48,527 nt of DNA from an uncultured Anaerolineales bacterium. GTDB taxonomy: Bacteria; Chloroflexota; Anaerolineae; B4-G1; SLSP01. This document shows positions 8,145-47,869 of this stretch, piece by piece. The position numbers and the translations under genes were made by a program. The DNA is taken from NCBI GenBank assembly GCA_964650935.1, contig CAZYYC010000002.1:1-48527 (forward strand), in the 5' to 3' direction. Each line of letters starts with the position of its first letter. The first letter of the stretch is position 1. The notes under the pieces were generated by a model. That model ran no database searches. It saw only the letters and a program-made list of their open reading frames with translations, and was not told the origin of the DNA.

Positions 8145-8660
8145 GTGAAGATGAAGACGCTGTTGATCTTGCGGCACGGTAAGTCGAGCTGGAAAGAGGC
8201 GGGGCTGGCCGATCATGAGCGCCCACTGAAGGGACGTGGAGAGCGTGATGCGGTTGAGGTGGGACGGCGGCTCGCGGAGCTGGGGCTGGTGCCCGAGCTG
8301 GTTGTGAGCTCGACGGCACGACGAGCGCGGGCGACGGCGATGCTGGCAGCACGGGCGAGCGGATGCTCGCAGGAGGTCGTGCCGGCGCGCGAACTCTATG
8401 CGGCAAGTGCACAGGCGGTGATCTGTGTCATCAGCACGGTGCCGGCGGGCTTTGAGCGTGTGATGGTGGTCGGGCACAATCCGGGTCTGGAAGAGGTACT
8501 GGAGGTGCTGACGGGAGAGGCTCGCCGGCTGCCGACGGCATGCGTCGCGTGCGTCGGGCTGCCGGTCGATACGTGGTCGGAGGTGCAGCCGGGGATTGAG
8601 GGACGCCTGTTGTGGGTCTGGCGGCCCGCCGATCAGGGTGGCGAGGCGGGGATGAGGTAG
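8145..8660 (+). CDS. Histidine phosphatase superfamily protein, SixA-like phosphohistidine phosphatase
   Basis: LILRHGKS (RHG catalytic motif) and VVGHNPG (second catalytic His). The size of about 170 aa fits SixA. GGAGGTG Shine-Dalgarno lies before the ATG. Confidence 0.8.
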   Translation: MKMKTLLILRHGKSSWKEAGLADHERPLKGRGERDAVEVGRRLAELGLVPELVVSSTARRARATAMLAARASGCSQEVVPARELYAASAQAVICVISTVPAGFERVMVVGHNPGLEEVLEVLTGEARRLPTACVACVGLPVDTWSEVQPGIEGRLLWVWRPADQGGEAGMR

Positions 8661-10168
8661 GGTCCGGCGGCAAGGGCCTGCCAATGGCCGTAGGCGTTCA
8701 GGTTGCCATAGGAGAAGAGCGCGTGGCCCTGAGCGCCGGCCTCGCGGGCCGTCCGGATGCGCCAAGCGATAGCGTCGAAGTCCTCGGTGACGCCGATACC
8801 GGGATAGACCGGATGCCCCTGGCTGTCGTCGAGGAAATCGTGCATCAGGGCTTGCCAGTTGTCGGGTTGGTCGGCATAGCTGCCGTAGAGCATCGGGACG
8901 ATAGCGTCAAGCGCGCCGGTCACGAGCCAGCCTTTGGAGTCCTGGTAGTAGCGGGTGAGTCCATCGGTGTAGGATGGCCAGACGGCAGCGGAGAGGAGAG
9001 TACGCTCCTGTGACTTCCCCATCACAGACATGCTTGAACGATCTCCTGTGTCGACGTGTGAGAGGGTGGTGTAGATCCTGCGGACTAGGCCGGTGATGCG
9101 CTCCTGCTGCCATTGGGCGCGCTGGGCCGTCGGATCGGTGCCGGCGGCGGCATTGCTGAAGGGATCGTAGGAGTAGTCGGGCCCGGCGTAGCGGACGAGG
9201 TCGAGATGGATGCCGTCGACGGCGTAACGCTCGGCGATGTCGGTGACGACGGAGAGAACGTGATCGTTGACCAGGTCGACGCCGGGACTGGCCCACAGGT
9301 AGTTGCCCTCGCTCGGGGCCATCGGCACGGGTGGGGAGCCGGCGGTGTACTGACGCCAGGTGTAGCCAAGGGCATGTTCGCCTGGATGGGCCTCGTAATG
9401 AGGTCCATAGGTGAAGCGATCGAACATCTGCGGCGGATCGGTGGCGGGAGGGAAGAGGTCGCCGTAACCGGCGGGCGGGGACTGCCAGGCGGGGTAGACG
9501 TTGACGTAGGCGTGGACCTCAAGGCCGGCAGCGTGCCCGCGCTCGATCATATAGGCGAGCGGATCCCAACCGGGGTCGACGCCGAGCGTGGTGGAGACAG
9601 GACCGGCGGTGAGGCGGGCGGCCCAGGGTTCCAGATCGGAGGCGTAGTAGGCGTCTCCGGCGGCACGGATCTGGAAGAAGATAGTGTTGAGGCCGGCGGA
9701 GGCGATGTTGGTGACGAGGGTGTCGACGTCCTCGGGTCGGGGCGTGCGCTCGAGGGTGGTCCAGTCGAAGCGGGTGACCCAGACGGCGCGGAGCTCGGTG
9801 ATGGGGACCGGGGCGGAGGTGATGAGGGGGAGATAGGCACGTGGCGCGAGGTCCTCCCCTTCCAGCTCACCCACGGTGGTTGGGAGAGCCGGCGACGAAG
9901 ACGCCGGACCGGCGGAGGGCAGGATCGTGCTTGGGGTCGCCGGCGCAGCATGCAGGAGCTGCCAGGTGTCGGCGCGGCCCAGGGAGGCAGCGACGGTATC
10001 GAAGTCGACGGCGGTGGTGGGCGCGGGCGGTGGCGTGAGGAGGCAGAGTAGCATAAGCAGGGCGATGAGGAGCGGGCGGGTGCCGTGGACGGTTCTTACG
10101 TCTTGCTGTCCTCCGCCACAGCATAGGGGGAGGCTCACACGATCCTGGGTCCCCCGTGGCTTGAGCAT
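8633..10168 (-). CDS. Exported glycoside-hydrolase-like family 10 (GHL10 / DUF187, YngK-like) protein
   Basis: N-terminal hydrophobic anchor/signal (PLLIALLMLLCLL) followed by a Pro/Ala/Ser/Thr linker. TIM-barrel-like blocks follow: RAVWVTRFDW, NTIFFQIRAAGDAYYASDLEPWA, AAGLEVHAYVNVY, DGIHLDLVRY. The 3' end overlaps the convergent SixA-like gene by 28 nt. Confidence 0.7.
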   Translation of the reverse strand: MLKPRGTQDRVSLPLCCGGGQQDVRTVHGTRPLLIALLMLLCLLTPPPAPTTAVDFDTVAASLGRADTWQLLHAAPATPSTILPSAGPASSSPALPTTVGELEGEDLAPRAYLPLITSAPVPITELRAVWVTRFDWTTLERTPRPEDVDTLVTNIASAGLNTIFFQIRAAGDAYYASDLEPWAARLTAGPVSTTLGVDPGWDPLAYMIERGHAAGLEVHAYVNVYPAWQSPPAGYGDLFPPATDPPQMFDRFTYGPHYEAHPGEHALGYTWRQYTAGSPPVPMAPSEGNYLWASPGVDLVNDHVLSVVTDIAERYAVDGIHLDLVRYAGPDYSYDPFSNAAAGTDPTAQRAQWQQERITGLVRRIYTTLSHVDTGDRSSMSVMGKSQERTLLSAAVWPSYTDGLTRYYQDSKGWLVTGALDAIVPMLYGSYADQPDNWQALMHDFLDDSQGHPVYPGIGVTEDFDAIAWRIRTAREAGAQGHALFSYGNLNAYGHWQALAAGPYLIPASPP

Positions 10169-10250: not shown

Positions 10251-10291
10251 CCCTTCCGGGCTGCGTTACCTCAAGCAACAGCCCGGAAGGG
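10251..10291 (-). terminator. Perfect 13-bp stem hairpin directly downstream of the 10304 stop codon
   Basis: cccttccgggctg (10251-10263) pairs with cagcccggaaggg (10279-10291) around a 15-nt loop. No clear U-tract follows on the minus strand. It separates the ABC/hydrolase operon from the GHL10 gene. Confidence 0.5.
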
Positions 10292-10303: not shown

Positions 10304-12499
10304 CTAGTTGCCCAGCTCGAATGTACGGGTAGCGCGAGCCCGTAGGTGCAGCGAGGTGGTGGTGCCGTCGTCGTAGACAAGGCGCAGATCGCGGTCGGCA
10401 CCGGTCGTATCGGTCAGGACAAGGGTCGTGCCGTCGAGTGTGACGGTGACGCTGTCGATGCCGAAGGCGAGGCCGCGTGGTCGATCGATGTAGACGTCGC
10501 CGAAGTGGTCATAGATGCGGTTGCGCGCCTCGGCAGCGGCGCCGTTGCCCCAGTCATAGATGGTGAAGCTGCCGATCCCGCCGCCCTCGGGCGTGGTGTA
10601 GCCGGTGTGTCCGTAGTTCTCCATCGTGAAGCCGTAATCCTCGGGCCCAAAGAAGGGCCAGACCTTCTCCCACAGGGCCTTAGCCTCGGGATTCTGCGGG
10701 CAGTACATCATGACGAAGGCGGACTTTAGGGCTGCAATGCCGCGTTCGAAGAGGTGGGGATCCCCGGTCTCGCGGTAGTAGGCGAGGAAGAGCTCGGCGA
10801 AAAGACACTGACGAGAGTCGTTCCACTCACCGTCAAAGTTCATGACGCCGAAGCCGCCGAGGGCGGGGATGTAGATAAAGGGCGGCTGCCAGGTCTGTTG
10901 GGTCATGGAGAGCTCGTCGAGCGTGCGGCGACCCCACCTGAGGTAGCGTTCGTCACCGGTGACGCGGTAGGTCTCGAGCAGGGCCTCGGCAGTCCAAAAC
11001 ATCGAGAAGTTGCACTGCTTGTACATCCCGTTGCGGGGGATGCGGTGTCCGAGATACGTTTCCTTGCCGAAGCTGCAGCACGACCAGTAGGTCTCGAAGT
11101 CCTCCCACCGACCGTTGGGGACGATCTCGATAAGGACGGCATCCATTGCGCGCAGCGCGGCTTCACGATAGCGGGCATCGCCGGTGAGCTCGGCGAGTTT
11201 GAGTAGGAAAGTGACACTCATGCTGGTCTCGGGAGACTCGGCAAGCACGTCGGCAGGGGCGAGGGTGTCGGGATGGAGCCAGGCGGGGAAGAAGCCCTTG
11301 TCATCCTGGAGGGTGAGGAGTTTGTCAGCGTAGGTGCTGACGTAGGTGAGCAGGTCGGCATCGGGATCGAGCTCCTCGTACCAGCGGAGCATGAGCAGGG
11401 CGGTCCAGCTGGCATCAAGGATGTGGTACCAGGCATCGGTAATGCCACGCTCGCGGGGACTTCGATTGGAGTTGGTCCAGTAGCCGGTCTCCCAGCCGAG
11501 AGAACGCTGGATGTCCTCGCCATCGATCGTCACGGTGGTCATCTCGGTGCGGTAGACGCCGGGGAAGATGCCCTCCTTGAAGGGCGCGGCGAGGGCGAAG
11601 GCCTTGGTCAGATCGGCGCGCCGGCGCAGGTCGGTGTCACCGGTGCGGCGGGCATAGCGGAAGAGGCCCGAGGCGCCGCGGAGCGAGGAGAACCAGGCCT
11701 GATTCCAGATGGAGAGGAACTCGCGCAGGGTCGTGTGGCCGGGATAGTTGGGCGACTCGGTGACGTTGACGATGAAGGCAGGGGCGCCGACGGTCTGCCC
11801 GTCGAGCTCGAACTCCTGCCAGACGGCGTCCTCCCATGTGTCAAAGGCCCACCGATAGACGTGCTCGACATAGCGGTCGAGGGGCACCTTCAGGGGCTCG
11901 CCCTGGTTGTAGAGGGGCCGGGCGTAGCGCTGCCAGAGGAAGTGGGCCACGCGATCCCAGGGGTTGCGCGGCGTCGCTGTGTCGCGGTAGGCAAGGACGT
12001 AGAAACCAAGCTCGATCAGCCCGGGCTGGAGTGTCATGCCGGTGACCTTCTCGTACTCAACGTGCTGCGAGATGCGGGTAGCGCTCAAGCCGATCCACCA
12101 ACGCTTCTCAGGGGCGTCGACATCCAAGAACCAGGGATTGTCGGGTAGGGCGCCGCAGATATCGAGATCGGGCACGAGGATCAGCGTGCGATCGCGGTCA
12201 GCTGCGATGAGAGCAGGGGAACGGAAGACGTGCTGGGCGATGCAGGTGCCCTCACGCGGCGCAAGATGGGGCGCCCACCAGAAATCGGGGTCGATGGCGA
12301 GATGGAACGCGATGGCGAGCTCATCCTGGGTGAGCGGGGCGTCTAGGCGCCAGGCAACGCGGACGCGCTGCCAGCCATCGCCGACGTCGGATATGTCGAC
12401 GGTGGGAGATGAGGCGCCAAGGGTTGGGACTGCAAATGTGGCCCAGGTCTCGTCGCCGATGCGCAGAGCTGCGTTGCGGTCAGATAGGTCAATGTCCAT
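10304..12499 (-). CDS. Uncharacterised cytoplasmic 731-aa protein, putative alpha/alpha-toroid (six-hairpin-like) carbohydrate-active enzyme; paralog of 12504-14801
   Basis: AAGGAGG Shine-Dalgarno 9 nt before ATG 12499. No signal peptide. Repeated helical-hairpin signatures: TGDARYREAALRAMDAV, TGDERYLRWGRRTLDEL, TGDPHLFERGIAALKSAF. Blocks shared with the neighbour are listed in the findings. It carries an extra C-terminal beta-rich tail. The family assignment is inference only. Confidence 0.6.
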   Translation of the reverse strand: MDIDLSDRNAALRIGDETWATFAVPTLGASSPTVDISDVGDGWQRVRVAWRLDAPLTQDELAIAFHLAIDPDFWWAPHLAPREGTCIAQHVFRSPALIAADRDRTLILVPDLDICGALPDNPWFLDVDAPEKRWWIGLSATRISQHVEYEKVTGMTLQPGLIELGFYVLAYRDTATPRNPWDRVAHFLWQRYARPLYNQGEPLKVPLDRYVEHVYRWAFDTWEDAVWQEFELDGQTVGAPAFIVNVTESPNYPGHTTLREFLSIWNQAWFSSLRGASGLFRYARRTGDTDLRRRADLTKAFALAAPFKEGIFPGVYRTEMTTVTIDGEDIQRSLGWETGYWTNSNRSPRERGITDAWYHILDASWTALLMLRWYEELDPDADLLTYVSTYADKLLTLQDDKGFFPAWLHPDTLAPADVLAESPETSMSVTFLLKLAELTGDARYREAALRAMDAVLIEIVPNGRWEDFETYWSCCSFGKETYLGHRIPRNGMYKQCNFSMFWTAEALLETYRVTGDERYLRWGRRTLDELSMTQQTWQPPFIYIPALGGFGVMNFDGEWNDSRQCLFAELFLAYYRETGDPHLFERGIAALKSAFVMMYCPQNPEAKALWEKVWPFFGPEDYGFTMENYGHTGYTTPEGGGIGSFTIYDWGNGAAAEARNRIYDHFGDVYIDRPRGLAFGIDSVTVTLDGTTLVLTDTTGADRDLRLVYDDGTTTSLHLRARATRTFELGN

Positions 12500-12503
12500 G
12501 GTG

Positions 12504-14801
12504 TTAGGCCTCCTTGGTAGGTAGACGTGGGCTCATGTGCTGCGAAGCGCCCCCGGATCTCAGGAAATAGGCGGCGGTGGCTAAGGCGCTGCCGGTTCCC
12601 CAATCGAAGCCGCTGACCCCGCACAGGCCGTCGTGACCGCCATGAGCGTGGTTCTCAGCAGCAAGGCCCTGGAGTGCGCGATGCCAACCGGTGGGATAGA
12701 GGGTGCTGAGGACAGGTAGGTAGGTGGTTGTGAATGCTGCATAGAGCGCGGCTTGGGCGCGTTCAAGGTGTTCGACGTCGCCCAGCAGGTTGTAGAGGTC
12801 CAGATGGGTGTCGGCGAACTGCGCCTGACGTGCGTCGCTCCACTCCCCATCCGTGTTCATGACCCCGTAGCCGCCAAAGGCGGCGAAGTTCAGGAAGGGC
12901 GGATCCCAGACCTGCTGGTAGAGCGTGAGGCGATCCATCACCCGGCGGGAAAGCGTGAGATGGCGGGGATCGCCGGTGACCTCGTGGAGGGCCAGGAGCC
13001 CGGCTGCCGCGGTGTGCATACACAGTGTGTTCTGGGGCCATTGACCGGAGCGGTGGTCGTAGGCGTCGAGGGGCTTGGGGGAGCAGGAGTAGTAGAGCTC
13101 AAAGTCGATCCAACGGGCCTGGGCGATGGCCCAGCTTTCGAGCCACGCTACAGAGCGAACTGCGGCACTGAGGAAGCGCTCGCGATCCGGATCGTCCGGC
13201 GGAAGAGCGCGGGCCAACTCCGCGAGGAACAGCAGCGAGGTAGCGTCCTCGGCGCTGTTAACGAAGCGCTCCTCGGGCCAGAGACGGAGGAGGCCGTGGG
13301 CGATGTAGCGGTCGCCCGGATCGTGCGCCTCAATGTCGGCCAGCTGCGCGGCATGATCCACGTGCGTGACCGGCGCGAAGGTGTGCGCATCGACGTAGGC
13401 GGGGAAGCTTCCCTTCTCGTCTTGCAGGGAGAGAAGGCCCTGGGCATAGGTGCGGGCGAAATCCAGTGATCGCGCATCCGGTTCAAGGTCACGCTGCCAG
13501 CGGAGGAGGTGATAGGCGGTCCAGGACATATCGAAGAGATGGTAGATGCCTAGGCCACCACCCTGTGGGTGGCTATGAACCCAGCGGTGGGGTGTCGACA
13601 CGTCGCCGAAGACGAAGACGGTGGGAAAGAGGCCGCGTTCCTGAGGCGCGGCGAGGACGAGGTCGCGCGTAGCGCGGGCGCGATCGACCCAATCGGATGT
13701 CCCGGTCTCCTTGCCCCAGACATAGAGTCCATAGGCCGAGCGAAGCTGGTTGAACCAGGTGCAGAACCAGACGTCATTGCGGTAGGCGCGATGGATGCGG
13801 AGGGCGCCGACACGCCGTCCATCGAGTGTGGTCTCGTCCCACAACTGGTCGAGGGCGCGAGGGTAGATCTGCCGGGCGAGTTCGGGAAAGGTGGCGGGCA
13901 TGGGGTGCGCAGCCGCGGCAGAACGCTTGCCGGCGTCGGTCCACAGTTTGCGGTTGGCCGCGTCGAGGGAAGCCCCTGGCGGCGCATCGGCGGCGGCGAA
14001 GAGATGATAGGTGAAGTGCAGGGGGCGTGTGGGCGGGAGCTCGCCGGGAAGATCCGGGCCATCGGGGGCGGGATGGGCGGCGTAGTAGACGTGGCCGCGG
14101 ACGTGGTGGGCACGAAGGCCGACGCGGAAGGTGGGCACACCATCGTCACGCAGCAGCGCCATACAACCGGGTAGTGACTGTAGTTTGCCGAGGGTGCCGG
14201 TGTCGTAGATGAGGGCTGCGGCGCGATCGCCGCTCTGGGCGGTAAGGGCCGGCGACCGGAGCACGTGTCGCCCGATCACGTCGTGGGGCTCGGGTGTGAG
14301 GACGGGCGAGAAGACCTCATCAGGCGGCGACGCCTCGTCCGGCGCACCGGACACGTGCCGGCCGACGAAGCGCCAAGCGGCCTCGAACCAGTCGACCGTG
14401 GTATCCGGTCGGGTGCGGTCGGCGGCGAGCACCTCGCTGACGCGAATCCAGGAGCTGTCATCGTCCAGGCGTAGGGTCAGGGCAAACGTAGTAGGGCCTG
14501 CGCTGCCGCGGATGGTCAGCTGGGCCGCCCCGGCGAGGCCCGTCTCGAGCTCAAGACATGGCATATCGGGATGCTCGGCGCGCAGGGCCGCGTTGGCGGG
14601 GTTGGTCGCGTTGGTGCCGCTACGCTCCAGGATGGAGACGAAGCCGTGGCCTGCCTGCCAAGCTGAGATGCGCAGGTGGAGCGCGCCGGCAACTACGGAG
14701 GCTTCGAGTTGGATGCGTTCGTTGTGGATCGTGACGTGATTGGGGGTCTGAACACTGTGCATGGTGTGACCTTTCGTCGTGGCGTGTGCCGAAGCGATCA
14801 C
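12504..14801 (-). CDS. Uncharacterised cytoplasmic ~750-aa protein, putative alpha/alpha-toroid carbohydrate-active enzyme; paralog of 10304-12499
   Basis: Homology to the downstream gene is clear by eye: IYHLFDMSWTAYHLLRW, LQDEKGSFPAY, RWIDFELYYSC, GGYGVMNTDGEWSDARQ, FDWGTG. The stop lies 4 nt before the next start. Start is either GTG 14801 or ATG 14762. Confidence 0.6.
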   Translation of the reverse strand: MIASAHATTKGHTMHSVQTPNHVTIHNERIQLEASVVAGALHLRISAWQAGHGFVSILERSGTNATNPANAALRAEHPDMPCLELETGLAGAAQLTIRGSAGPTTFALTLRLDDDSSWIRVSEVLAADRTRPDTTVDWFEAAWRFVGRHVSGAPDEASPPDEVFSPVLTPEPHDVIGRHVLRSPALTAQSGDRAAALIYDTGTLGKLQSLPGCMALLRDDGVPTFRVGLRAHHVRGHVYYAAHPAPDGPDLPGELPPTRPLHFTYHLFAAADAPPGASLDAANRKLWTDAGKRSAAAAHPMPATFPELARQIYPRALDQLWDETTLDGRRVGALRIHRAYRNDVWFCTWFNQLRSAYGLYVWGKETGTSDWVDRARATRDLVLAAPQERGLFPTVFVFGDVSTPHRWVHSHPQGGGLGIYHLFDMSWTAYHLLRWQRDLEPDARSLDFARTYAQGLLSLQDEKGSFPAYVDAHTFAPVTHVDHAAQLADIEAHDPGDRYIAHGLLRLWPEERFVNSAEDATSLLFLAELARALPPDDPDRERFLSAAVRSVAWLESWAIAQARWIDFELYYSCSPKPLDAYDHRSGQWPQNTLCMHTAAAGLLALHEVTGDPRHLTLSRRVMDRLTLYQQVWDPPFLNFAAFGGYGVMNTDGEWSDARQAQFADTHLDLYNLLGDVEHLERAQAALYAAFTTTYLPVLSTLYPTGWHRALQGLAAENHAHGGHDGLCGVSGFDWGTGSALATAAYFLRSGGASQHMSPRLPTKEA

Positions 14802-14914
14802 GATAGGCCCGGATGCGTCGTGAGAGCAGGTCCGGACACGGCGGTGATGCCTCGGTACCGTGTGATGTCATGCGTGCGTCGAGGGCCACCTGTGGCTCAC
14901 CTTCTCATCCCGGC

Positions 14915-16189
14915 CTAGAACCTCACGAGGTGGAAGTCGGTCTGGCGACCGTGGATGGGATAACAGCCGTCGCGCGTGAAGGCGACATCCTGTTCCATCG
15001 AGAAGGTGACCTCCTGTCCATCCCACTCCGGGACGGGTGCGGTGATCGAGAGCTCCATGGTGAACGTCTGGTTGGTCTCGAGCGTGACGTCACCGCGGCC
15101 CTCGCACCTCTCCTGTTCCCAGGGCAGGCCGATGAGGGGGCCCGGCTCATGGAGGAAAAAGCCGAGACTATGGGAATAGACCTTGGGCTTGGGTATGCCG
15201 GCGGCGTGGGCCCGCGTGAGAATGGTTTCCAGGAGTTGGTTGCCGGTCAGACCGGCTTGAAAGGAGGCCATAAAGATGTCCTGAAGGCGGTTGCCCTCAG
15301 CCATCAGGTGCCGAAGTCCCGTGGGCGCACTCCGTTCGCCCGGGCGGAGGATGTAGGCCCACTCCTGATGATCGCTATTGAGACGGAGGTATTTGATCCC
15401 GACATCCGAATGGATCATATCGCCGGGACGAATGACCTGGTCATCGGCGCCATACCGAGTGCGCATGGCGTCGCTACGGACCAAGTTGAAGAAGGGCTTG
15501 AAGGCCAGGTCAAGGCCGAGCTCCGCCGCCGACTGCCAGTAAGCCCACTCAAGATCGCGAGTCGTCGTAACGCCGGGGACGATGGTCGCGGTGCTGTAGC
15601 AGGCGCCCAGCAGGTGGTGGGCCACGTTGACGACGTGATGAAAGGCGGTCAGCTCACGGTCGGTGAGGCAGGCAAAGAAACGGGTGATGAGAGGTTCGGC
15701 GGAGACGAGGCGTTCGGCGAAGGACGGCGGTAGGGTGGCGAGAAGGCGATCATAAAGGGTGTGAGTGAGGCCGCCCGCAGCCCACTGCGTCGTCCCGATG
15801 TTGATGCCGATGCGCTTGGGGTTGCGGGCTTCAATGCACTGGCGCAGTAGGGGCCACTGTTCCTCGTGATGGCGCCCGGTCCAGGGTCGCTCATAGAGCC
15901 CCTGGGTGTCGGTCATCGAGAGGTTCAGGCGTTCAACACCCAGATCAGGTCCGCGGTCATAGAAGACCAGGACTTGGAGGATGGGGCACCACGTGTTGAT
16001 GGGGATGAGGTGGGTGAAGACGGGATCGAGGTTGTCCTCCTGGCAGATGATGAGCCACATGTCGAGGCCGCACTCACGCATCAGAGAAGGGAGGAGGTCA
16101 GTGAGCCGTTCGTCAAGGAGGTCATACGTAAGGGCCGCGCGCTCACGCATGGTCAGGATTCGAGGCATCGGTGATACCGAGCTAGGCAT
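14915..16189 (-). CDS. M24-family metallohydrolase (Xaa-Pro peptidase / creatinase fold)
   Basis: AGGAGG 8 nt before ATG 16189. The pita-bread metal ligand pattern looks intact: HSD...(11 aa)...NSD, YSHSLG, TMELS, SMEQD. The N-terminal creatinase-like domain begins MRERAALTYDLLDERL... Confidence 0.75.
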   Translation of the reverse strand: MPSSVSPMPRILTMRERAALTYDLLDERLTDLLPSLMRECGLDMWLIICQEDNLDPVFTHLIPINTWCPILQVLVFYDRGPDLGVERLNLSMTDTQGLYERPWTGRHHEEQWPLLRQCIEARNPKRIGINIGTTQWAAGGLTHTLYDRLLATLPPSFAERLVSAEPLITRFFACLTDRELTAFHHVVNVAHHLLGACYSTATIVPGVTTTRDLEWAYWQSAAELGLDLAFKPFFNLVRSDAMRTRYGADDQVIRPGDMIHSDVGIKYLRLNSDHQEWAYILRPGERSAPTGLRHLMAEGNRLQDIFMASFQAGLTGNQLLETILTRAHAAGIPKPKVYSHSLGFFLHEPGPLIGLPWEQERCEGRGDVTLETNQTFTMELSITAPVPEWDGQEVTFSMEQDVAFTRDGCYPIHGRQTDFHLVRF

Positions 16190-16281
16190 AGATACGCCTC
16201 CTAACTATCTTTGATGGCTCTAAGGGTGGCAGCGTCGCCGGATCCGTGATCCGATGGGTTTCGCGCGGGCAGAACAAGAGT

Positions 16282-16386
16282 GCCAGACCTTGCGAGGGCT
16301 TGGTGTTGTGTTGTGCGTTGGGCCCCGTGTGTGCGTTGCGGTCTATCTTGGGATGGGACTGCGTGACCCTCGCAAGGTCGTCTGGC
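16282..16386 (-). promoter_or_regulatory. Long-range intercistronic stem (17 bp with a 3-nt bulge) enclosing about 68 nt of GT/CA-rich sequence, between the permease and M24 genes
   Basis: gccagaccttgcgaggg (16282-16298) pairs with ccctcgcaaggtcgtctggc (16367-16386). The loop contains gtgttgtgttgtgcgttg and gtgtgtgcgttgcgg. It sits in the 213-nt gap within an otherwise tight operon. Confidence 0.45.
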
Positions 16387-16402
16387 TAAGGTTGGGCCGG
16401 CT

Positions 16403-17290
16403 CTATCCTTTGATGCCGGTGAGGGCAATGCCCTCAACAATGAGGCGCTGGGCGAAGAAGTAGAGGATGATAGGCGGGAGGAGGATGACGACGGAGGCTG
16501 CCATCAGGTAACCCCATTGCGTGCTGTACATGCCGCGGAAGGTGGCGAGTCCGAGAGAAAGGTTGAACTTGTTGGCATCGTTCAGGATGATGAGGGGCCA
16601 GAGGAAGTCATTCCAGCCGTTGATGACGGAGAAGACGGTGACGGTAGCGAGAGCGGGCTTGGAGAGCGGCATGATGATGCGCCACCAGATGCCGATGTAG
16701 CCACATCCATCGATCTTGGCAGCATCATCGAGTTCTCGGGGAATGCCCATATAGAACTGGCGTAAGAGAAAGATGTAGAAGGCGCTGCCGAAGAAGGCGG
16801 GGACGAGGAGTGGGAGATAGGTGTTGATCCAGTTCAGCTCCTTGTAGAGGATGAACTGGGGGACCATCGTGACCTGTCCCGGCAACATCATGGTCGAGAG
16901 CAGAACCATAAACAGGAGGTTCTTCCCGGGAAAGTTGAGGCGGGCGAAGCCGTAGACTACCCAGGAGCTGGAGAGGACGATGCCGAAGGTGCCGACGGTG
17001 GTGAGGAAGAGGGTGTTCTTGAGCAGCTGCCAGAACTTCATCAGGTCGAGCGCTTCGGGATAGTTCTGCCAGAGGATCGGATTCGGTATCCACTGAGGTG
17101 GATAGATCCAGATGCGCGCCTCGACTTTGAGCGAGGAGGAGAGCATCCAGAAGAAGGGTAGGGAGAAGATGATGCCAAGGGCGGTGAGAAAGAAGTACCA
17201 GAGAACCTTGGAGAGCGTCTTCTGGACGCGGTACCAACTGAAGTGCCGAGTGCGCGAAAGTGTGCTGTGTTGTATGTCTTGGGCCGCCAT
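16403..17290 (-). CDS. Carbohydrate ABC transporter permease (MalG-like)
   Basis: 295 aa with 6 TM segments. The EAA-loop region reads PRELDDAAKIDGCGYIGIWWRIIMPLSKPAL. Confidence 0.9.
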   Translation of the reverse strand: MAAQDIQHSTLSRTRHFSWYRVQKTLSKVLWYFFLTALGIIFSLPFFWMLSSSLKVEARIWIYPPQWIPNPILWQNYPEALDLMKFWQLLKNTLFLTTVGTFGIVLSSSWVVYGFARLNFPGKNLLFMVLLSTMMLPGQVTMVPQFILYKELNWINTYLPLLVPAFFGSAFYIFLLRQFYMGIPRELDDAAKIDGCGYIGIWWRIIMPLSKPALATVTVFSVINGWNDFLWPLIILNDANKFNLSLGLATFRGMYSTQWGYLMAASVVILLPPIILYFFAQRLIVEGIALTGIKG

Positions 17291-17302
17291 TTGTTTCCCC
17301 CC

Positions 17303-18235
17303 TTACCTCATCATTTCGCCTTCGTAGTAGACCCACTTCTGTGACAGGCGGAACTGGATCAGGGTGAGTAAGATCACGATCACAAAAAGGACCCAGGCCA
17401 TAGCAGCTGCGTAGCCCATGCGCAGGAGGCGGAACGCCTGACGGAAGAGATAGAGTACGTAGAAGAGGGTGGAGTTCTGGGGCGCTCCGCCCGTCATCAC
17501 ATAGGCGGATGTGAAGACCTGGAAGGAGCCGATGAGGCCCATGACGAGGTTGAAGAAGATGACCGGGGTCATCATAGGAATCGTGACATGGCGGAACTTC
17601 TGCCAGGTGTTAGCCCCATCGATGACAGCCGCCTCATAGAGTGACGTCGGCACGCCTTGAAGGCCCGCGAGGAAAATCACGGCGGTGCCGCCGACACCCC
17701 ATAGACTCATCAGGATGAAGGCAGGCTTCGACCAGGTCGGATCAACCAGCCAGCCCGGGCCAGGAAGGCCGATGGAGCGGAGGAGGTAGTTGATGAGCCC
17801 AAACTGAGGGTTGAAGAGCCAGATCCATAGCAGGGAGACGGCGACGCCGGAGGTGACGGCGGGGAGGTAGAAGACGGTCCGGTAGATGTTCATGCCGGGA
17901 AGCTTGACGTTGAGCAGGAGCGCGAGCAGGAAGGCGAAGATGATGCCCAGGGGCACGCTGAAGATGACGTAATAGACGGTGTTGTAGAGCGAGAGGAGGA
18001 AGAGCCGATCGCGGGTGAAGAGCTCAATGTAGTTGCTCAGGCCAACAAACTTCGGTGGGGCAAAGAAGTCGTAGTCGGAGAAGCTGAGGCCGATGGAGGC
18101 GATAACGGGCCCGAGGGTGAAGACGAGGAAGCCGATGACCCATGGGGCGACGAAAATGTAGCCCCAGAGTGCCTCACGGTCGAACTTGAGTTTCCCCTTA
18201 CCTGAGAACTGCTTAAAGGTCTGAGGTGAGAGCAT
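17303..18235 (-). CDS. Carbohydrate ABC transporter permease (MalF-like)
   Basis: 310 aa. The EAA-loop region reads PTSLYEAAVIDGANTWQKFRHVTIPMMTPVI. GGAGGT Shine-Dalgarno lies 8 nt upstream of the start. Confidence 0.9.
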   Translation of the reverse strand: MLSPQTFKQFSGKGKLKFDREALWGYIFVAPWVIGFLVFTLGPVIASIGLSFSDYDFFAPPKFVGLSNYIELFTRDRLFLLSLYNTVYYVIFSVPLGIIFAFLLALLLNVKLPGMNIYRTVFYLPAVTSGVAVSLLWIWLFNPQFGLINYLLRSIGLPGPGWLVDPTWSKPAFILMSLWGVGGTAVIFLAGLQGVPTSLYEAAVIDGANTWQKFRHVTIPMMTPVIFFNLVMGLIGSFQVFTSAYVMTGGAPQNSTLFYVLYLFRQAFRLLRMGYAAAMAWVLFVIVILLTLIQFRLSQKWVYYEGEMMR

Positions 18236-18260
18236 GCGGATGACCTCCGAACGGTAAAAA

Positions 18261-18316
18261 GCCGTCTCGGCAATGAGCCTTTGTCCTAGAGCCGAGGTTC
18301 ATTGCCGAGACAGACG
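18261..18316 (-). promoter_or_regulatory. Intercistronic hairpin between the binding-protein gene and the permease genes
   Basis: ccgtctcggcaatga (18261-18275) pairs with tcattgccgagac(aga c)gg (18298-18316). That gives 13 contiguous bp plus 2 more across a bulge, with a 22-nt loop. Confidence 0.45.
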
Positions 18317-18330
18317 GTAATCAGGAGAGC

Positions 18331-19692
18331 CTACTCGGCATCTTCTCTGGCCAGAGCGTCCGCGATCTTGGGAGCTGCATCGCCCAGAGCCTCTTCAGGT
18401 GTGCGATCGCCGAAGATAGCTTCGTCGAAGGCCTGCCCGAGGGCGTCGGTGATGAGCGGGTACTGGGAGCTGCGCGGGCGAGCGCGTCCGGATTCCATCG
18501 CCTCGAGGAAGACGGCCAACTGCGGGACTTCCTGGAGGCGCTGCTCGGCAATGCTCCGGCGACCGGTGAGTGCGTAGCCGAACTTGGACGTGTGGAGCTG
18601 CCAGGTATCGGTGGTGGTGAAGGCCATGATGGGCAGCGTCTGCTCGAGATGCTGGCCGTCCCGGTTGGCGGAGAAGAGCCATCCACCGACGCCGCTGATG
18701 AACTGACCGTCCGCCGGGCGCGGGAACTTGGCGATGTCCCAACTGAACTCGGGCGGGTTGGTCTCGGTGAGGTTGGCGAGGTCGAAGGCGCCGGTGGCGC
18801 TCATGACGACGACCTGACCATAGAAAGTGCCTTCGGGACCCGCTTCGGCCATACCGGCCTTGGGCCAGATCTTGTGCACGTTGATGATGTCCTTGAGGAA
18901 CTGGATCGCCTCAACAGCGGGCTCAGCGTCGATGGTGACCTCACGAGTTGCCGAGTCGTAGACCTGACCGCCATTCATCCAGATCCAGGGAAGGACCATC
19001 CAGACGGAACCTTCGCCGAGGCAGCACCACTGCTCGAAGGCCCACTGACGGACGGCGTTCCAGTCAAAGGCGGCGTCGTTGGGGTGGTTGCCGTTGATAT
19101 CGTAGGTGAGGGCCTGACCGGTGGTGATGAGCTCATCCCAGGTCTCGGGCGGCTCGACGCCGGCCTCATTCATTTTGTCGACGTTGATACGCAATGCGAT
19201 CGAGTTGGTCTCCAGGACGGTTGCATAGGTCTTGCCGCGGAACTGCATCTCGGCGCGGGCAGGAGGATAGAAGTCATCGAGGATATCCTGCGGGATCACC
19301 GCATCACTCAACTCGGCGGTGAGGCCGCGATTGGCGAACGTCGGGAGGTTAATCCCGTCAACGGCGAAGATATCGGGGAGCGTGCCGCCGGCAGCCGCCG
19401 TGGCGAACTTCTGCTCCCACTCACTGGGGACGCGGGTGAAGAGGAAGTCGGTATCGGGATGGTCAGGCAGGTAGTTCTCAGCCATGAACTCGGTGATCCC
19501 GATGTTGTCCTCGAGGGGATGGGGGGTCCACATCTCGACGGTGACCTTGTCGACAGCCGGCTCACCGACGACCGGCTCGCCGCCGGGCTCCTGTGTAGCA
19601 GGCTGGGTCTGCGCGCCGCAGGCTGACAGTAGTGCAACACCCGCGCCGGCCGAGGCCAGTTTCAGAAAGTTACGACGTGACAGCTTCTCCAT
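18331..19692 (-). CDS. ABC transporter extracellular solute-binding lipoprotein (carbohydrate family 1), Tat-type signal
   Basis: Preferred start is ATG 19692, preceded by AAGGAGG. MEKLSRRNFLKLASAGAGVALLSACGAQ combines a twin-arginine motif with a lipobox (LLSAC). The track ORF extends to 19758 without support. Confidence 0.88.
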   Translation of the reverse strand: MEKLSRRNFLKLASAGAGVALLSACGAQTQPATQEPGGEPVVGEPAVDKVTVEMWTPHPLEDNIGITEFMAENYLPDHPDTDFLFTRVPSEWEQKFATAAAGGTLPDIFAVDGINLPTFANRGLTAELSDAVIPQDILDDFYPPARAEMQFRGKTYATVLETNSIALRINVDKMNEAGVEPPETWDELITTGQALTYDINGNHPNDAAFDWNAVRQWAFEQWCCLGEGSVWMVLPWIWMNGGQVYDSATREVTIDAEPAVEAIQFLKDIINVHKIWPKAGMAEAGPEGTFYGQVVVMSATGAFDLANLTETNPPEFSWDIAKFPRPADGQFISGVGGWLFSANRDGQHLEQTLPIMAFTTTDTWQLHTSKFGYALTGRRSIAEQRLQEVPQLAVFLEAMESGRARPRSSQYPLITDALGQAFDEAIFGDRTPEEALGDAAPKIADALAREDAE

Positions 19693-19909: not shown

Positions 19910-21121
19910 ATGGAGAATCCCGACCAACTTGACGATCAGATCCTAGAGGCGCTGACGCATCTCTACGATCCGGATTATGTGCCGCCTGCAGGCCTTGTCG
20001 AACTCGTGGGAGTGTCTCCCGAGGACGGCCCGCTGCCGGTGCAGTCGGCCCTGCTTCATGCGATTCAGGAGCTCGAGCCACGCGGCGTGCTGTCGGACGA
20101 AGCCCATCTCGCGCGCGTCTACGAGGTGCTGCACAGGCGCTTCGTGGCCAAACTAACGCAGGAGAAGACGGCAGAGCTGATGGACATCAGCGTCCGGCAT
20201 CTGAACCGCGTTCAGCGTGAGGCGGTGCACACGCTGGCGCGGCGCCTCTGGGAGCGACGGCGTGATCGGGGCAGGGCCGCAGCCGGAAGCGAGTTGCAGG
20301 CCGGGGATTGGGAGGCGCAGATAGGACGCGAACTGGCGGCGCTACAGGCCCGAGCCCCAGGGGCTGTGGCCGATGTCGGTGAGACGCTGACCGGGGTGTT
20401 GAGTTTCCAGGGTGCCCTGGGCCTGGGTGAGGATCGGGTCGAGGTGGGGTTCGTACAGCCGGACCTGGCGGCGGCTCTGAACGCTTCCGTGCTGCGCCAG
20501 ATCCTGATCACCGCGATCGGGCGTTTCGTGCGGTACCAGGGGGAGCGGGGTCGGGTGACGGTCTTCGCGGGGTTGGAGAATGGTGAGGTGCGCATCACCA
20601 TTGCCGGTGCGGTGGAGACCCGAGCGGATGATGCGGATCTGCGGCGGGCGCTGGTGGGCGACGTGCTGACCCCGACGGGCGTGGGGGTCGAGGTCTCGGT
20701 GGAGGAGGGCGCTGTCTTTGTGACGATCCGAATGCCGTCGGCGGCACAGCGGCTTACGGTGCTCGCGGTTGACGATAATGCGGATATGGGCCACTTCTAC
20801 CGCCGCTGTACGGTGGGGACGCGCTACCAGCTGGTGCACCTAGGTGCCGGAGAAGGGGTATTGGAAGCGGTGCGGGCGATCCAACCGGATGTGATCGTGC
20901 TGGACGTGATGCTTCCGGACGTGGATGGCTGGCAAGTGCTGATGCACCTGCACGAAGACCCGACCACGCGGTCGATCCCGGTGGTGATCTGTACGGTCGT
21001 ACGGGAGGAGGAGCTGGCCCTGTCGTTAGGCGCGTCCGGGTTCCTGGCCAAGCCCGTCCGGCCCCGCGAGTTCATCCAGGCACTAGATCAGGCGCTCCTT
21101 CGGGCTCAAGAAGGAGGGTAG
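19910..21121 (+). CDS. Atypical response regulator: sigma-70 region-4-like HTH, degenerate HATPase-like middle domain, C-terminal receiver
   Basis: HTH: LTQEKTAELMDISVRHLNRVQREAVHTLARRL. The middle domain resembles a kinase catalytic domain (VLRQILITAIGRFVRY...VRITIAG...VFVTIRMP) but I see no Asn or G-box residues. Receiver: LAVDDNADM...VIVLDVMLPDVDGW...VVICTV...FLAKPV. Confidence 0.75.
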   Translation: MENPDQLDDQILEALTHLYDPDYVPPAGLVELVGVSPEDGPLPVQSALLHAIQELEPRGVLSDEAHLARVYEVLHRRFVAKLTQEKTAELMDISVRHLNRVQREAVHTLARRLWERRRDRGRAAAGSELQAGDWEAQIGRELAALQARAPGAVADVGETLTGVLSFQGALGLGEDRVEVGFVQPDLAAALNASVLRQILITAIGRFVRYQGERGRVTVFAGLENGEVRITIAGAVETRADDADLRRALVGDVLTPTGVGVEVSVEEGAVFVTIRMPSAAQRLTVLAVDDNADMGHFYRRCTVGTRYQLVHLGAGEGVLEAVRAIQPDVIVLDVMLPDVDGWQVLMHLHEDPTTRSIPVVICTVVREEELALSLGASGFLAKPVRPREFIQALDQALLRAQEGG

Positions 21122-23279
21122 AGAGCTCTTCCGTGCAGCGCAGGAGACGGCTTAGCGGGAGGCCCTCCCCGATGGTCGCCGCGATGAGGGGGCTCAGGGG
21201 CGGGCGATCCGCCGGGTCCTGGGCGGAGACGAGCAGGGTGGGGACGGTCGGCAACGTAGGATCCGTGCTCAGGGTGGTGAGGAGTCCCCAGCCATCGGTG
21301 CCGGGCATAATGACATCGAGCAGCATCAGGTCAATGGGCTGTGTGCGCAGGTGGCGGAGGGCGGCCTCGGTGCTGCCGGCGGTGGCGATGTCGAGGGTCG
21401 GATCGTGGAGCTGCAGCATACGGGTGAAGAGCTGCAGGACGTCGGGATCGTCATCGACGATGAGAATGTGGCGGGGTGGTGCCGGCGTGAGGTCGAGCGC
21501 AGCGGTGAGGCTGGCGCGCGTGACAGGTTTGACGAGATAGCCGAGGGCACCGGCGTCGGCAGCGCGCTCGAGCGTACGTGGGACGGCACAACCCATGATG
21601 GGCGTGTCGGGAGCGAGGGATTGAAGCTCGCGCATCCGGGGCCAGAGGTTGTCGAGGTCCGTCGTGTTGATGAGAATCGCATGGGCAGGAGCGTGTGCGA
21701 GGGCATCGGCGACCTGCGAGATGTCGTGAGTATGGAGGCATTCGAAGGTGTCCGCGTGTCGCGCGAACCAGGCATGCAGATCTCCCGTGGGGTCGCAGAG
21801 GATGAGGCGGGGAAGGGTAAGACGATCGGAGTAGGAGGCGCGGGAAGCCTGGACAGCCGGTTCACGCCAGACCCAGTCGGGCACAATGGTGTGACCGGGA
21901 CGCGCAAGCGGCGCGATGGGCGGGGAGATCGGTAGTGTGAAGTAGAAAGTTGTGCCGACGCCCAGCTGGCTCTCGAGCCACATACGCCCGCCGTGGAGTT
22001 CGACGAAACGACGGGAGATGGACAGACCGAGACCGCTGCCGCCGCGACCGTGCCAGAGGCGGCCCTGGTCGAAGGGTTCGAAGATCGTCTCGGCGTCCTC
22101 AGGGGCAATGCCGGCGCCGGTGTCCTGGACGCTGATGCGAACCTGCCCGTCCTGATGATGGACCTCAATCCTGATATGGCCATGATCGGTGAAGCGCGCA
22201 GCGTTACTGACGAGGTTGAGGATAACCTGCTGAACACGAGTTCGATCGCAGTAGACGTCGGGAAGGTCGCCGGGCACCTGAACGTGCGCGGCGACTTGTT
22301 TTTTGTCGAGTAGAGGGCGGACGGCAGCGACGCTGGCGTCGATGACGTTGCCGAGGGCCACCCGCTCGCGGTGAAGGGCCAAGCGACCGGACTCGATGCG
22401 GGTGAGATCCAGGACATCGTCGATCATATGGGACAGGTGCTCGCAGTTGCGATGGATCACCTGCAGGTCCTGACGCATGTCCGGGGGCAGGACGACGGCA
22501 TAGATCTCGGGCGACTCGACCATCAGGTCGACCAGGCCGATGATCATGTTGAGCGGGGTGCGAAACTCGTGGCTGACGTTGGCGACGAAGGTCGTTTTGG
22601 CACGTTGGGCTTCCTCGGCGATCTCGCGCAGCGCGGTGGTACGTTGATTGGCGAGGGCGAGCTGCCGGTTGGCGGTAGCGAAGGCCTCCAGGGTCTGTTC
22701 GAGCTGGGCCTGATGGTCGCGCGCCTCCTCAAGAAAGTGCTGTCCGCGATGGAAGTAGTCCTCCACCCAGTCGATGAGTTGATGGACGGGACGATGGGTG
22801 CCGTAGGTGGTGCCGAGTGCAGCCCAGGTGGCAAGGATGGCCAGACTGAGGGTCGGCGCGTCGGCGAGGGTTGGTTGTAGGCGGGGAACGAGGAGGAGGG
22901 TGGCGGTCTGCAACACGGCAACGAGGATAGAGGCCGAGAAGCGGATGAGGGGCGTCGCGAGGGCGACGGGCAGCGCAGCGAGGATAAGGACCTGCGGGAG
23001 ATCCAGGATCAGGGAGGCGGCATAGATCGCTGTAGGTAAGGCGCCCAGAAGGAACCAGCGGCCCAGGCTGGGACGCCAGGCCGTGATCAGCCAGGCGGCG
23101 AGGCCCAGAGGAAGGATCGCGAGGCTGAGGCTCATAGCGCGGTTGACGATCGCCCATTGGCTCGAGGTGAGCTCGGCGATGAAGTAGGGGAGGATGCCCG
23201 CGACGAGCAGGACGGCGATCACCGGACCGGTGGGGATGCGGAGTTCGGCCTCGAAGCCGGGTTGTATATGATTCGACAT
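21072..23279 (-). CDS. Hybrid sensor histidine kinase: about 6 TM, HisKA, HATPase_c, receiver-like domain, then C-terminal receiver
   Basis: AGAGGAG Shine-Dalgarno before ATG 23279. H-box VANVSHEFRTPLN, N-box ILNLVSNAARFT, G1 DTGAGI, G2 GGSGLGLSI. A receiver-like block follows (AILINTTD...GYLVKPV), then a receiver (ILIVDDDPDV...LMLLDVIMPGTDGW...LLVSAQ). Confidence 0.85.
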   Translation of the reverse strand: MSNHIQPGFEAELRIPTGPVIAVLLVAGILPYFIAELTSSQWAIVNRAMSLSLAILPLGLAAWLITAWRPSLGRWFLLGALPTAIYAASLILDLPQVLILAALPVALATPLIRFSASILVAVLQTATLLLVPRLQPTLADAPTLSLAILATWAALGTTYGTHRPVHQLIDWVEDYFHRGQHFLEEARDHQAQLEQTLEAFATANRQLALANQRTTALREIAEEAQRAKTTFVANVSHEFRTPLNMIIGLVDLMVESPEIYAVVLPPDMRQDLQVIHRNCEHLSHMIDDVLDLTRIESGRLALHRERVALGNVIDASVAAVRPLLDKKQVAAHVQVPGDLPDVYCDRTRVQQVILNLVSNAARFTDHGHIRIEVHHQDGQVRISVQDTGAGIAPEDAETIFEPFDQGRLWHGRGGSGLGLSISRRFVELHGGRMWLESQLGVGTTFYFTLPISPPIAPLARPGHTIVPDWVWREPAVQASRASYSDRLTLPRLILCDPTGDLHAWFARHADTFECLHTHDISQVADALAHAPAHAILINTTDLDNLWPRMRELQSLAPDTPIMGCAVPRTLERAADAGALGYLVKPVTRASLTAALDLTPAPPRHILIVDDDPDVLQLFTRMLQLHDPTLDIATAGSTEAALRHLRTQPIDLMLLDVIMPGTDGWGLLTTLSTDPTLPTVPTLLVSAQDPADRPPLSPLIAATIGEGLPLSRLLRCTEELSTLLLEPEGAPDLVPG

Positions 23280-24869: not shown

Positions 24870-24884
24870 GGACTCCTGATGTGA

Positions 24885-25679: not shown

Positions 25680-25714
25680 GATCTCCTTATGGGATGGGTG
25701 TGAGCAACAGGGAC

Positions 25715-26563: not shown

Positions 26564-26633
26564 CGTGAAGGTCCTTTCGGTAAGTCACTTATGATCAGAC
26601 ATGGGCAGCGCGTCAAAGCAAAACGACCGCACG

Positions 26634-28118: not shown

Positions 28119-28211
28119 AGCTATGCGCCTTTCAGATCCGGACCCTTCCGAGATTTCCGATCAGTCGTTAGGTCGGGAGGGGGATCGCGATGGTCCCAGT
28201 TGGGAAATATG

Positions 28212-28243
28212 GGGCTTTGAGCGCTTCTGTGAGCTCAAAGCCC
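28212..28243 (-). terminator. Intrinsic-terminator-like hairpin after the oxidoreductase gene
   Basis: gggctttgagc (28212-28222) pairs with gctcaaagccc (28233-28243): 11 bp perfect with a 10-nt loop. It begins 12 nt after the stop at 28255. On the minus strand it is followed by CAUAUUUCCC. Confidence 0.55.
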
Positions 28244-28254
28244 TGGATGTCACG

Positions 28255-35403: not shown

Positions 35404-35444
35404 TTTCGTCTCCTTAACTACAGATGCTGTGTGTTCGCGTGCTG

Positions 35445-36536: not shown

Positions 36537-36543
36537 CTTGGTC

Positions 36544-37542: not shown

Positions 37543-37620
37543 GGTGTTGACCTCCTTGATTGTGTCGTAGCCGATTATAGGTGACGTGGTGGGTAACTCA
37601 AGGTCGCGCGCGCTTGCCTC

Positions 37621-38904: not shown

Positions 38905-38977
38905 CGTGTGCCTCTGCTTTCGTTACGTGACGGGCGACGATTGTCCGGTGATCCGGATCGTTCGTTATTCGTTGCGT

Positions 38978-40108: not shown

Positions 40109-40188
40109 AACACTACCTCCTCCGTTAAGTGATCCCACAATCGTGCGGCCCCATTATAGGGTCACAGGGAGGAGGGGGCAATTGGGTG

Positions 40189-47763: not shown

Positions 47764-47778
47764 CGCGAGCTCGCTCAC

Positions 47779-47808: not shown

Positions 47809-47869
47809 TCGATATGTTCTCCGAAGAAGGGTTCCCTAGCGTAACAGCACAACGATGGAGGTGCTCAAA

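Follow-up and report, generated by a model that had tools for sequence, protein, structure and literature searches.

The six open reading frames (ORFs) that form the subject of this analysis follow one another in the same orientation along the minus strand (10304-19692) of a 48,527-bp stretch of DNA from an uncultured Anaerolineales bacterium (contig CAZYYC010000002.1; hereafter the window), and together specify a carbohydrate-type importer plus three predicted cytoplasmic enzymes, two of which belong to a large and unnamed protein family. An ORF check placed all six on that strand exactly where a prior reading of the letters alone (the sequence-only reading) had described one co-directional unit. 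In order of transcription, the genes encode a CUT1-type substrate-binding protein (SBP; 18331-19692), a Tat-lipoprotein recognised by PF01547, TIGR01409 and a lipobox; two ATP-binding cassette (ABC) permeases, both carrying PF00528, permease 1 (17303-18235) being UgpA/MalF-like and permease 2 (16403-17290) UgpE/MalG-like; a predicted cytoplasmic M24B metallohydrolase of the creatinase/prolidase fold (hereafter M24; 14915-16189; PF00557); and two large, predicted cytoplasmic proteins of the unnamed family, bigA (752 aa; 12504-14762), a member of a rare subfamily, and bigB (731 aa; 10304-12499), a member of the widespread subfamily.

The successive intergenic gaps from the SBP gene to bigB measure 95, 12, 213, 152 and 4 nt, in agreement with the range of 4-213 nt given beforehand. 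The value of 152 nt between M24 and bigA follows from taking the ATG at 14762 as the bigA start, which is also the start in database entry P0391 (752 aa); an alternative GTG start at 14801 (ORF 12504-14801) would give a gap of 113 nt. An AAGGAGG Shine-Dalgarno site is present 8 nt upstream of the SBP gene, and the corresponding AAGGAGG site of bigB falls within the 3' end of bigA.

A perfect 13-bp stem-loop (10251-10291, minus strand) with a 15-nt loop lies 12 nt past the bigB stop codon, and has a folding energy of -33.3 kcal/mol (z = -5.1 versus shuffles). No U-tail is present and a consensus terminator scan did not report the hairpin. Because of its 15-nt loop and missing U-tail it is not a canonical intrinsic terminator. 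The perfect stem of the closing hairpin originally described is confirmed, and the element is likely to be either a transcript end or a stabiliser. A further stem-loop (18264-18311, minus strand; 17-nt arms 94% complementary, 14-nt loop) occupies the 95-nt gap between the SBP and permease 1 genes. Differential mRNA stability mediated by stem-loops is a feature of many ABC operons, and this structure may prolong the binding-protein message relative to the remaining transcript. The 213-nt gap between permease 2 and M24 contains a perfect 13-nt inverted repeat on the minus strand (16286-16298 and 16367-16379; arms GACCTTGCGAGGG and CCCTCGCAAGGTC, 68 nt apart), which might act in RNA processing or stability, or be bound by a protein. 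An Rfam scan of the entire 48,527-bp window returned no RNA family.

The importer and the M24 metallohydrolase

The SBP matched PF01547 at 62.6 bits (cutoff 26; E = 8e-17), and its N-terminus (MEKLSRRNFLK...LLSAC) combines the Tat motif SRRNFLK with a subsequent lipobox, LLSAC, the Tat signal scoring 22.2 bits against the TIGR01409 cutoff of 16.7. Its closest solved relatives are sugar binders, for example GacH and MalE-like proteins. PF00528 was detected in both permeases (E = 7e-16 in permease 1 and 2.5e-17 in permease 2), the nearest NCBIfam models being UgpA, GlcT and MalF for the former and UgpE, MalG and GlcU for the latter, in every case under the equivalog cutoffs. This combination of a PF01547 SBP with UgpA/MalF-like and UgpE/MalG-like permeases bears out the earlier assignment of the transporter, which is a CUT1-type carbohydrate importer. 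A tblastn search of the 48.5-kb window with an ABC ATPase query gave no match to an ATPase of the MalK/MsiK type, a result compatible with membership of the CUT1 class since such systems often share an ATPase encoded elsewhere.

M24 matched PF00557 at 45.5 bits (cutoff 23), although no NCBIfam model matched, and a search of PDB sequences with the single sequence likewise found no match. Its putative metal ligands D262, D273, H340, E379 and E399, together with H347, are invariant in 23 homologues. When a profile of M24 homologues was aligned with the Pyrococcus prolidase 1wn1, D262, D273 and E379 paired with prolidase residues, H340 and E399 being assigned by means of the HxxGxxxHE motif and residue spacing rather than by that pairing. 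The AlphaFold2 (AF2) model (predicted local distance difference test, pLDDT, 91) consists of an N-terminal creatinase/prolidase domain followed by the catalytic domain; its best Foldseek matches were two-domain Xaa-Pro aminopeptidases and dipeptidases (TMt ≤0.75, ~16% identity), and the non-peptidases creatinase, the ectoine hydrolase DoeA and the dimethylsulphoniopropionate lyase DddP matched nearly as well. M24 is a divergent and probably active M24B enzyme with an intact two-metal site. It resembles the M24B Xaa-Pro peptidases of T. maritima (2zsg) and P. horikoshii (1wn1) in its two-domain fold, five metal ligands and HxxGxxxHE motif, but is set apart from them by the low identity, by the failure to match any NCBIfam model or single PDB sequence, and by the sugar-type character of its genomic partners.

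Relatives of M24 at 64-66% identity occupy other contexts, those at 64% identity adjoining M19 genes, a Fucose_iso_C-like gene and an Opp-type transporter. Loci L081 (10001-14719) and L082 (10001-14776) share a conserved neighbourhood in which two isomerase-like genes of the IF-2B family and one resembling the RuBisCO large subunit come after the M24 relative (64%), and an Opp-type ABC operon with fragmented M19 genes lies on the opposite side.

The bigA/bigB family

Alignment of bigA with bigB (32% identity over 637 aa; E = 3e-76) established that the two proteins are paralogs. Neither gave a Pfam, NCBIfam or PDB-sequence match above threshold: single-sequence searches of the PDB with both yielded nothing better than a phmmer match to a PL27 lyase over 39 residues (E = 0.089), the sole sequence-level echo, and a 22-sequence family profile found no match among PDB sequences. 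Sub-threshold echoes of GH88, GH127, GH47 and C5-epimerase models in bigB each covered one or two helical hairpins. Equivalent Pfam scans of 62 diverse family members produced only sub-threshold matches (C5-epim_C in 13, GH88 in six, Pec_lyase in four, GH127 in four and GH47 in three), and those of nine long members, undertaken in search of fusions, revealed no more than toroid echoes and a single DUF1349 match, all of them under threshold. The sequence-only reading, which had been unable to assign either large protein to an established family, was upheld by Pfam, NCBIfam, PDB-sequence and fold searches, which stood in for CAZy models and none of which gave a confident family match. It was equally correct in noting that both proteins lack a signal peptide, no N-terminal hydrophobic segment being detected in either, an observation that supports a predicted cytoplasmic location, and that TGDxRY motifs are repeated, TGDARY and TGDERY occurring in bigB and variants of that type in both paralogs.

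The AF2 model of bigB (pLDDT 81.6; predicted template modelling score, pTM, 0.88) comprises a beta-sandwich (residues 1-172), a barrel of paired helices (~270-666) and a small beta-sandwich (669-726). Searched against the PDB with Foldseek, it gave 170 matches at E ≤ 1e-3, and the 50 listed were almost all (alpha/alpha)6-barrel enzymes: the PL27 lyase BACCELL_00875 (5nok; E = 5e-8) headed the list, followed by GH116, GH94, a GH15-type dextran dextrinase, GH52, GH76, GH65, GH63, GH78 and AGE-type epimerases. At the level of the model, these data confirmed the fold of bigB as a twelve-helix (alpha/alpha)6 toroid with flanking beta-sandwiches, and with it the alpha/alpha toroid that had been guessed from the helical-hairpin motifs. 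A beta-sandwich, (alpha/alpha)6 barrel, beta-sandwich build is also the architecture of GH116, GH94, GH65, GH52 and PL27 enzymes. Nevertheless, the full-length template modelling (TM) scores of 0.24-0.34, the identities of 9-13% and the empty family-profile search of the PDB indicated that no solved structure is closely related to bigB. BACCELL_00875 (5no8/5nok) shares with bigB the design of an N-terminal beta-sandwich plus (alpha/alpha)6 barrel, but at 11% identity and a TM of 0.24-0.26, while GH116 (TxGH116/ExoMA2) aligned at E = 1e-7 in Foldseek with a TM of 0.30, 9% identity and no sequence match. PL27 enzymes are components of Bacteroides polysaccharide utilisation loci that act on gum arabic.

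To assess conservation, 111 diverse members taken from clusters at 50% identity were aligned, and a position was scored as conserved when ≥85% of them shared it. In bigB numbering, the near-invariant polar residues were H146, R274, W336, Q398, D467, E469, Q534, W537, N554, D556, E558, D561, R563, R586, E627, N628, H631 and W650, all of which are kept in both paralogs. Indeed, bigA retains 42 of the 44 family-conserved positions, including every polar one, and since no conserved polar residue is missing from it both paralogs look catalytically competent. Such a combination of carboxylates with tryptophans and arginines would fit an active site that binds sugars.

Several established identities were considered and rejected. 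The GH88/GH105 model PF07470 matched bigB at 22.9 bits (cutoff 26.6) over model positions 205-343 only, that is, the last 40% of the model, and six of the 62 scanned members matched it, weakly; although GH88/GH105 enzymes share the six-hairpin barrel, they are single-domain proteins of ~350-400 aa, unlike the three-domain bigA and bigB. In light of the scattered sub-threshold matches of the 62-member scan, the label 'rhamnogalacturonyl hydrolase YesR'/GH105 attached to one JGI/ENA cluster member is unjustified. A GH127/GH146 identity (PF07944, 19.4 bits against a cutoff of 24.9, over 27 residues) also failed: GH127 enzymes possess a conserved cysteine nucleophile at a Cys-Zn site, whereas the CC pair formed by residues 474-475 of bigB is replaced by SCS in bigA, and C474 falls under 85% conservation in the family, so that a GH127-like nucleophile was rejected because the cysteine pair is not conserved. 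PF28588, considered as a possible model for the family, turned out to be GH172_1st.

A word-seeded search recovered >1464 homologues of bigB, and no functional name was attached to any of the 120 listed, all being unnamed or 'hypothetical'. An exhaustive profile search gave 939 clusters at 50% identity (676 at E ≤ 1e-10), and a scan of one genome per species confirmed at least 381 loci, 80 of which provided the neighbourhood counts reported below. These 80 span Chloroflexota, Hydrogenedentota, Planctomycetota, Acidobacteriota, Gemmatimonadota, Verrucomicrobiota, Omnitrophota and Eubacteriales metagenome-assembled genomes (MAGs), and every one derives from a MAG or an uncultured bacterium; a single distant relative belongs to a cultured bacterium, Cohnella candidum. 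The bigA branch is far rarer (48 matches). In loci L012-L080, bigB orthologues from Chloroflexota, Planctomycetota, Acidobacteriota, Gemmatimonadota and Eubacteriales MAGs are 57-65% identical over ~720 residues, a cross-phylum identity high for an accessory carbohydrate enzyme and hence pointing to either strong constraint or recent lateral spread among bacteria with anaerobic digester and sediment habitats in common.

Genomic context of the operon

The sequence-only reading had made its proposal dependent on conservation of the arrangement beyond this genome, and the full operon was duly recovered from three other metagenome contigs, with protein identities of 54-86%. In locus L083 (54-81% amino acid identity) the order is hybrid kinase, response regulator, SBP, two permeases, M24, bigA-like and bigB-like genes; L086 (69-86%) has the same layout with upstream xylulokinase and isomerase-like genes in addition; and a JGI contig (sample 3300042731) carries SBP, two permeases, M24, a bigA-like gene (60%) and a truncated gene, with a LacI-type regulator in place of the two-component system. 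Every one of the four full operon copies, including the one with a different regulator, has M24 between permease and bigA. An orthologous transporter (58-77% identity) also adjoins a family member in five further Chloroflexota contigs and in three gene orders, co-directional with bigB in L002 and L006, convergent with it in L007 and L008, and in L090 accompanied by a bigA-like gene with a LacI gene in between. That the link between transporter and family survives such rearrangement argues for a functional connection. The tandem bigA-bigB pair itself was found in none of the 80 species-level loci, being confined to a narrow Chloroflexota clade.

Elsewhere, the commonest partner of the family is GH172 (formerly DUF2961; current Pfam names GH172_1st/dom/2nd), a homologue of which is found no more than 10 kb from bigB in 19 of the 80 loci and which ranks first among the families of 103 operon-like neighbours. 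GH172 occurs once as a fusion with a bigB-type protein (P0104), the sole informative fusion, and lies directly downstream of bigA-like genes in two contigs. Characterised GH172 enzymes are reportedly alpha-D-fructofuranosidases/difructose-dianhydride enzymes and exo-alpha-D-arabinofuranosidases. Other operon-like neighbours include GH127-like, GH106 and GH2 genes, LacI regulators and sugar ABC systems. In three Gemmatimonadota, no more than ~1.5 kb separates bigB from an M24 orthologue (50-52% identity): in L035 and L079, bigB is near a short-chain dehydrogenase/reductase (SDR) gene, a Fucose_iso_C-like gene and GH172, and after bigB come an M19 dipeptidase-like gene and then the M24 orthologue, whereas in L053 the orthologue is directly 3' of bigB.

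Beyond the closing hairpin of the window lies the gene for GHL10 (8633-10168, minus strand), a Cwp19-like TIM-barrel glycanase homologue (PF02638, E = 3e-25), secreted or anchored, that matches Cwp19 (5oq2; E = 2e-25), which we take to be a peptidoglycan hydrolase. On account of its N-terminal hydrophobic segment and Pro/Ser/Thr-rich linker GHL10 is expected to be extracellular, and it is a possible extracellular partner of the operon. Among the 80 loci it adjoins bigB in one only, L001, a near-identical contig (96%-identical fragment). In L087 (10001-15917; Anaerolineae MAG GCA_025454475.1), M24 (70%), GHL10 (54%) and a double-GAF histidine kinase (64%) are contiguous, and transporter and barrel genes are absent. 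The window contains the same M24, GHL10 and double-GAF kinase (5530-8055) genes, with bigA and bigB interposed between M24 and GHL10, and comparison of the two layouts suggests that the pair was either inserted in the lineage of the window or lost in L087.

On the other side of the operon, and divergent from it, is a response regulator gene (19910-21121, plus strand) whose product has an N-terminal sigma70_r4-like helix-turn-helix and a C-terminal receiver (residues 284-392), an unusual domain order; it is syntenic in L083 (54% identity) and L086 (76%), and is the likely regulator of the operon. A hybrid histidine kinase gene (21072-23279, minus strand) is convergent with it, the 3' ends of the two overlapping by ~50 nt, and both overlap and arrangement recur in L083 and L086. 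Just past these two-component genes, a block encoding a xylulokinase and two xylose-isomerase-like TIM-barrel proteins (23331-26563, minus strand; TIGR01312, and AP_endonuc_2 twice) is also syntenic in L086, the xylulokinase scoring 402 bits against the XylB model TIGR01312 (cutoff 380); possibly these genes serve downstream sugar catabolism. The sequence-only reading's claim that M24 and the large pair are the only catabolic genes was overstated, in that the xylulokinase, two isomerase-like genes and secreted GHL10 adjoin the unit.

Proposed role and alternative explanations

The data establish the gene content, the fold, the conserved catalytic-type residues and the patterns of synteny and co-occurrence; from them we infer glycoside-cleaving chemistry, a role for M24 and the kind of substrate. 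Taken as a whole, it appears rather probable that the locus provides for the inducible uptake and cytoplasmic breakdown of a carbohydrate-containing oligomer. Fragments that may be produced by the secreted GHL10 would be bound outside the cell by the Tat-exported lipoprotein and imported via the two CUT1 permeases, in conjunction with an ATPase presumed to be encoded elsewhere because none was found in the 48.5-kb window. Once in the cytoplasm, the imported molecule would be cleaved by bigA and bigB at two different glycosidic linkages, and the M24B enzyme would hydrolyse a bond of amide or peptide type, either in the substrate itself or in a product, the adjacent hybrid kinase and response regulator probably controlling expression.

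An importer plus cytoplasmic exo-enzymes is a standard design, and in that respect this is not a categorically new system. The D-arabinan locus of Microbacterium arabinogalactanolyticum encodes secreted endo-enzymes (GH183), an ABC importer, an isomerase and a kinase, together with exo-enzymes consisting of a signal-less GH172 and a beta-sandwich/(alpha/alpha)6 GH116 (PMC10509167). In overall logic the operon resembles it closely, with a candidate secreted depolymerase, a CUT1-type importer, putative signal-less cytoplasmic exo-enzymes and a nearby isomerase and kinase, and the bigA/bigB family repeatedly adjoins, and once is fused to, GH172; it differs in that the window has neither GH172 nor GH183, that bigA and bigB gave no GH116 match by sequence or HMM, and that M24B forms part of the unit.

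A number of observations weigh against the proposed scheme. The structural matches to bigB are distant over the full length (vide supra) and include lyases, phosphorylases and epimerases as well as hydrolases, and the most conserved bigB loops are the lowest-confidence regions of the model. Between GHL10 and the operon stands the hairpin at 10251-10291. Conservation of the neighbourhood does not extend beyond a narrow Chloroflexota clade, and many bigB genes sit among housekeeping genes, for example those for Lon protease and a tRNA_SAD-domain protein. Transporter and bigB are paired in the absence of M24 in four genomes (L002, L006, L007 and L008), close M24 relatives adjoin either GHL10 or Opp-type transporters and M19 genes, and GH172, M19 and GH127-like genes were not found in the window.

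As to the substrate, a furanoside-containing glycan or glycoconjugate would be the leading guess because GH172 and GH127-like neighbours recur in the family. Within the proposed scheme, a sugar-amide conjugate rather than a plain glycan is a possible, if doubtful, substrate. The sequence-only reading had seen in the pairing of the large proteins with a pita-bread metallohydrolase the sign of a glycoconjugate, and this persists as a hint only: M24 and M19 genes flank the family in Gemmatimonadota, but the transporter is paired with a paralog, and M24 is missing, in the four genomes just listed, and the 70%-identical M24 of L087 is paired with GHL10 where there is no transporter. Should bigA and bigB represent a new carbohydrate-active enzyme (CAZyme) family that acts on a furanosidic or unusual bond, and obligatorily with M24B on an imported sugar-amino-acid or glycopeptide conjugate, such as hydroxyproline-linked arabinosides or a Maillard/caramel-type adduct, the operon would be the first of the sugar ABC type with a pita-bread 'peptidase' as an integral catabolic step; we regard this more demanding version, and those example conjugates with it, as unlikely.

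A simpler explanation, judged rather unlikely, has a plain oligosaccharide as the substrate and the transporter and barrel enzymes as the functional unit, with M24 as an ordinary cytoplasmic Xaa-Pro-type peptidase that is syntenic only, the remnant of an older M24-GHL10-kinase block. It would account for the SBP-permease-permease-bigB sets that lack M24, for the persistence in L087 of M24, GHL10 and the GAF kinase, in a flanking order as in the window, without transporter or barrel genes, for the different contexts of M24 relatives at 64-66% identity, and for the 213-nt gap, with its inverted repeat, that precedes M24. It fits poorly with the position of M24 between permease and bigA in four of four full operon copies despite the change of regulator, with the renewed adjacency of an M24 orthologue and bigB, alongside an M19 gene, in a different phylum, and with the divergence of M24 from characterised enzymes, which extends to the lack of any single-protein PDB sequence match.

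Other doubts concern the chemistry of the large proteins, which on a further explanation are not hydrolases but phosphorylases, beta-eliminating lyases or sugar epimerases/isomerases built on the shared barrel; that explanation overlaps the proposed scheme with regard to the role of the operon, and in our estimation is improbable. The top Foldseek match and the sole sequence echo both implicate PL27, an L-Rha-alpha-1,4-GlcA lyase, and GH94 and GH65 phosphorylases and AGE-type epimerases also match in Foldseek, but all of these reflect the shared fold in a general way and fall short of any family threshold. Similarly, conserved R274, R563, R586, H146 and H631 would suit an anionic group (phosphate or uronate), yet the six conserved carboxylates are more typical of hydrolases. 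The weak Pfam echo seen most often is that of the glucuronyl C5-epimerase C-terminal domain (13 of 62 members). Against this explanation, AGE-type enzymes do not have flanking beta-sandwich domains.

M24 aminopeptidases require a free alpha-amino group, and the stem peptides attached to MurNAc have none. For that reason, and since amidase, MurNAc etherase and GlcNAc-processing genes are not present, GHL10 adjoins bigB only in near-identical L001 among 80 loci, and GH172, GH127-like and GH106 neighbours point to plant or microbial furanosides and rhamnosides rather than murein, it is very improbable that the operon scavenges peptidoglycan-type glycopeptides, with GHL10 cutting strands, muropeptide-like fragments being imported, M24 trimming the peptide and the barrels splitting the sugars, notwithstanding the match of the secreted GHL10 to Cwp19 of Clostridioides difficile, the conserved M24-GHL10 adjacency and the M19 dipeptidase-like genes that accompany M24 and bigB elsewhere.

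The operon offers a credible route to a new family of carbohydrate-active enzymes, and a good target for CAZyme discovery: the family is unnamed, structurally unsolved, lacking a Pfam model, large and phylogenetically wide, and its pairing with pita-bread and M19 metallohydrolases is unusual. Were an activity assigned, thousands of genes of uncultured degraders living in digesters, sediments and soils would gain an annotation, and a new CAZy family would probably result; the pairing with GH172, and that with M24 and M19 in two phyla, provide a concrete starting point and hint at sugar-amide substrates whose catabolism is undescribed.

The remainder of the window is rich in genes of sugar-related type. 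Between them, 23331-29358 and 33802-40138 contain, in addition to the xylulokinase, three xylose-isomerase-like TIM barrels, two GFO/IDH/MocA oxidoreductases, one of which is weakly similar to levoglucosan and glycoside 3-dehydrogenases, an SDR, a Zn-dependent alcohol dehydrogenase, an aldo-keto reductase, a class II aldolase and a glycogen synthase. Minus-strand ORFs at 43426-45366, 45541-46410 and 47483-48508 gave no Pfam match, and are overlapped by a plus-strand ORF of 1,598 aa (42967-47763) at a contig end with a G+C content of 70%.

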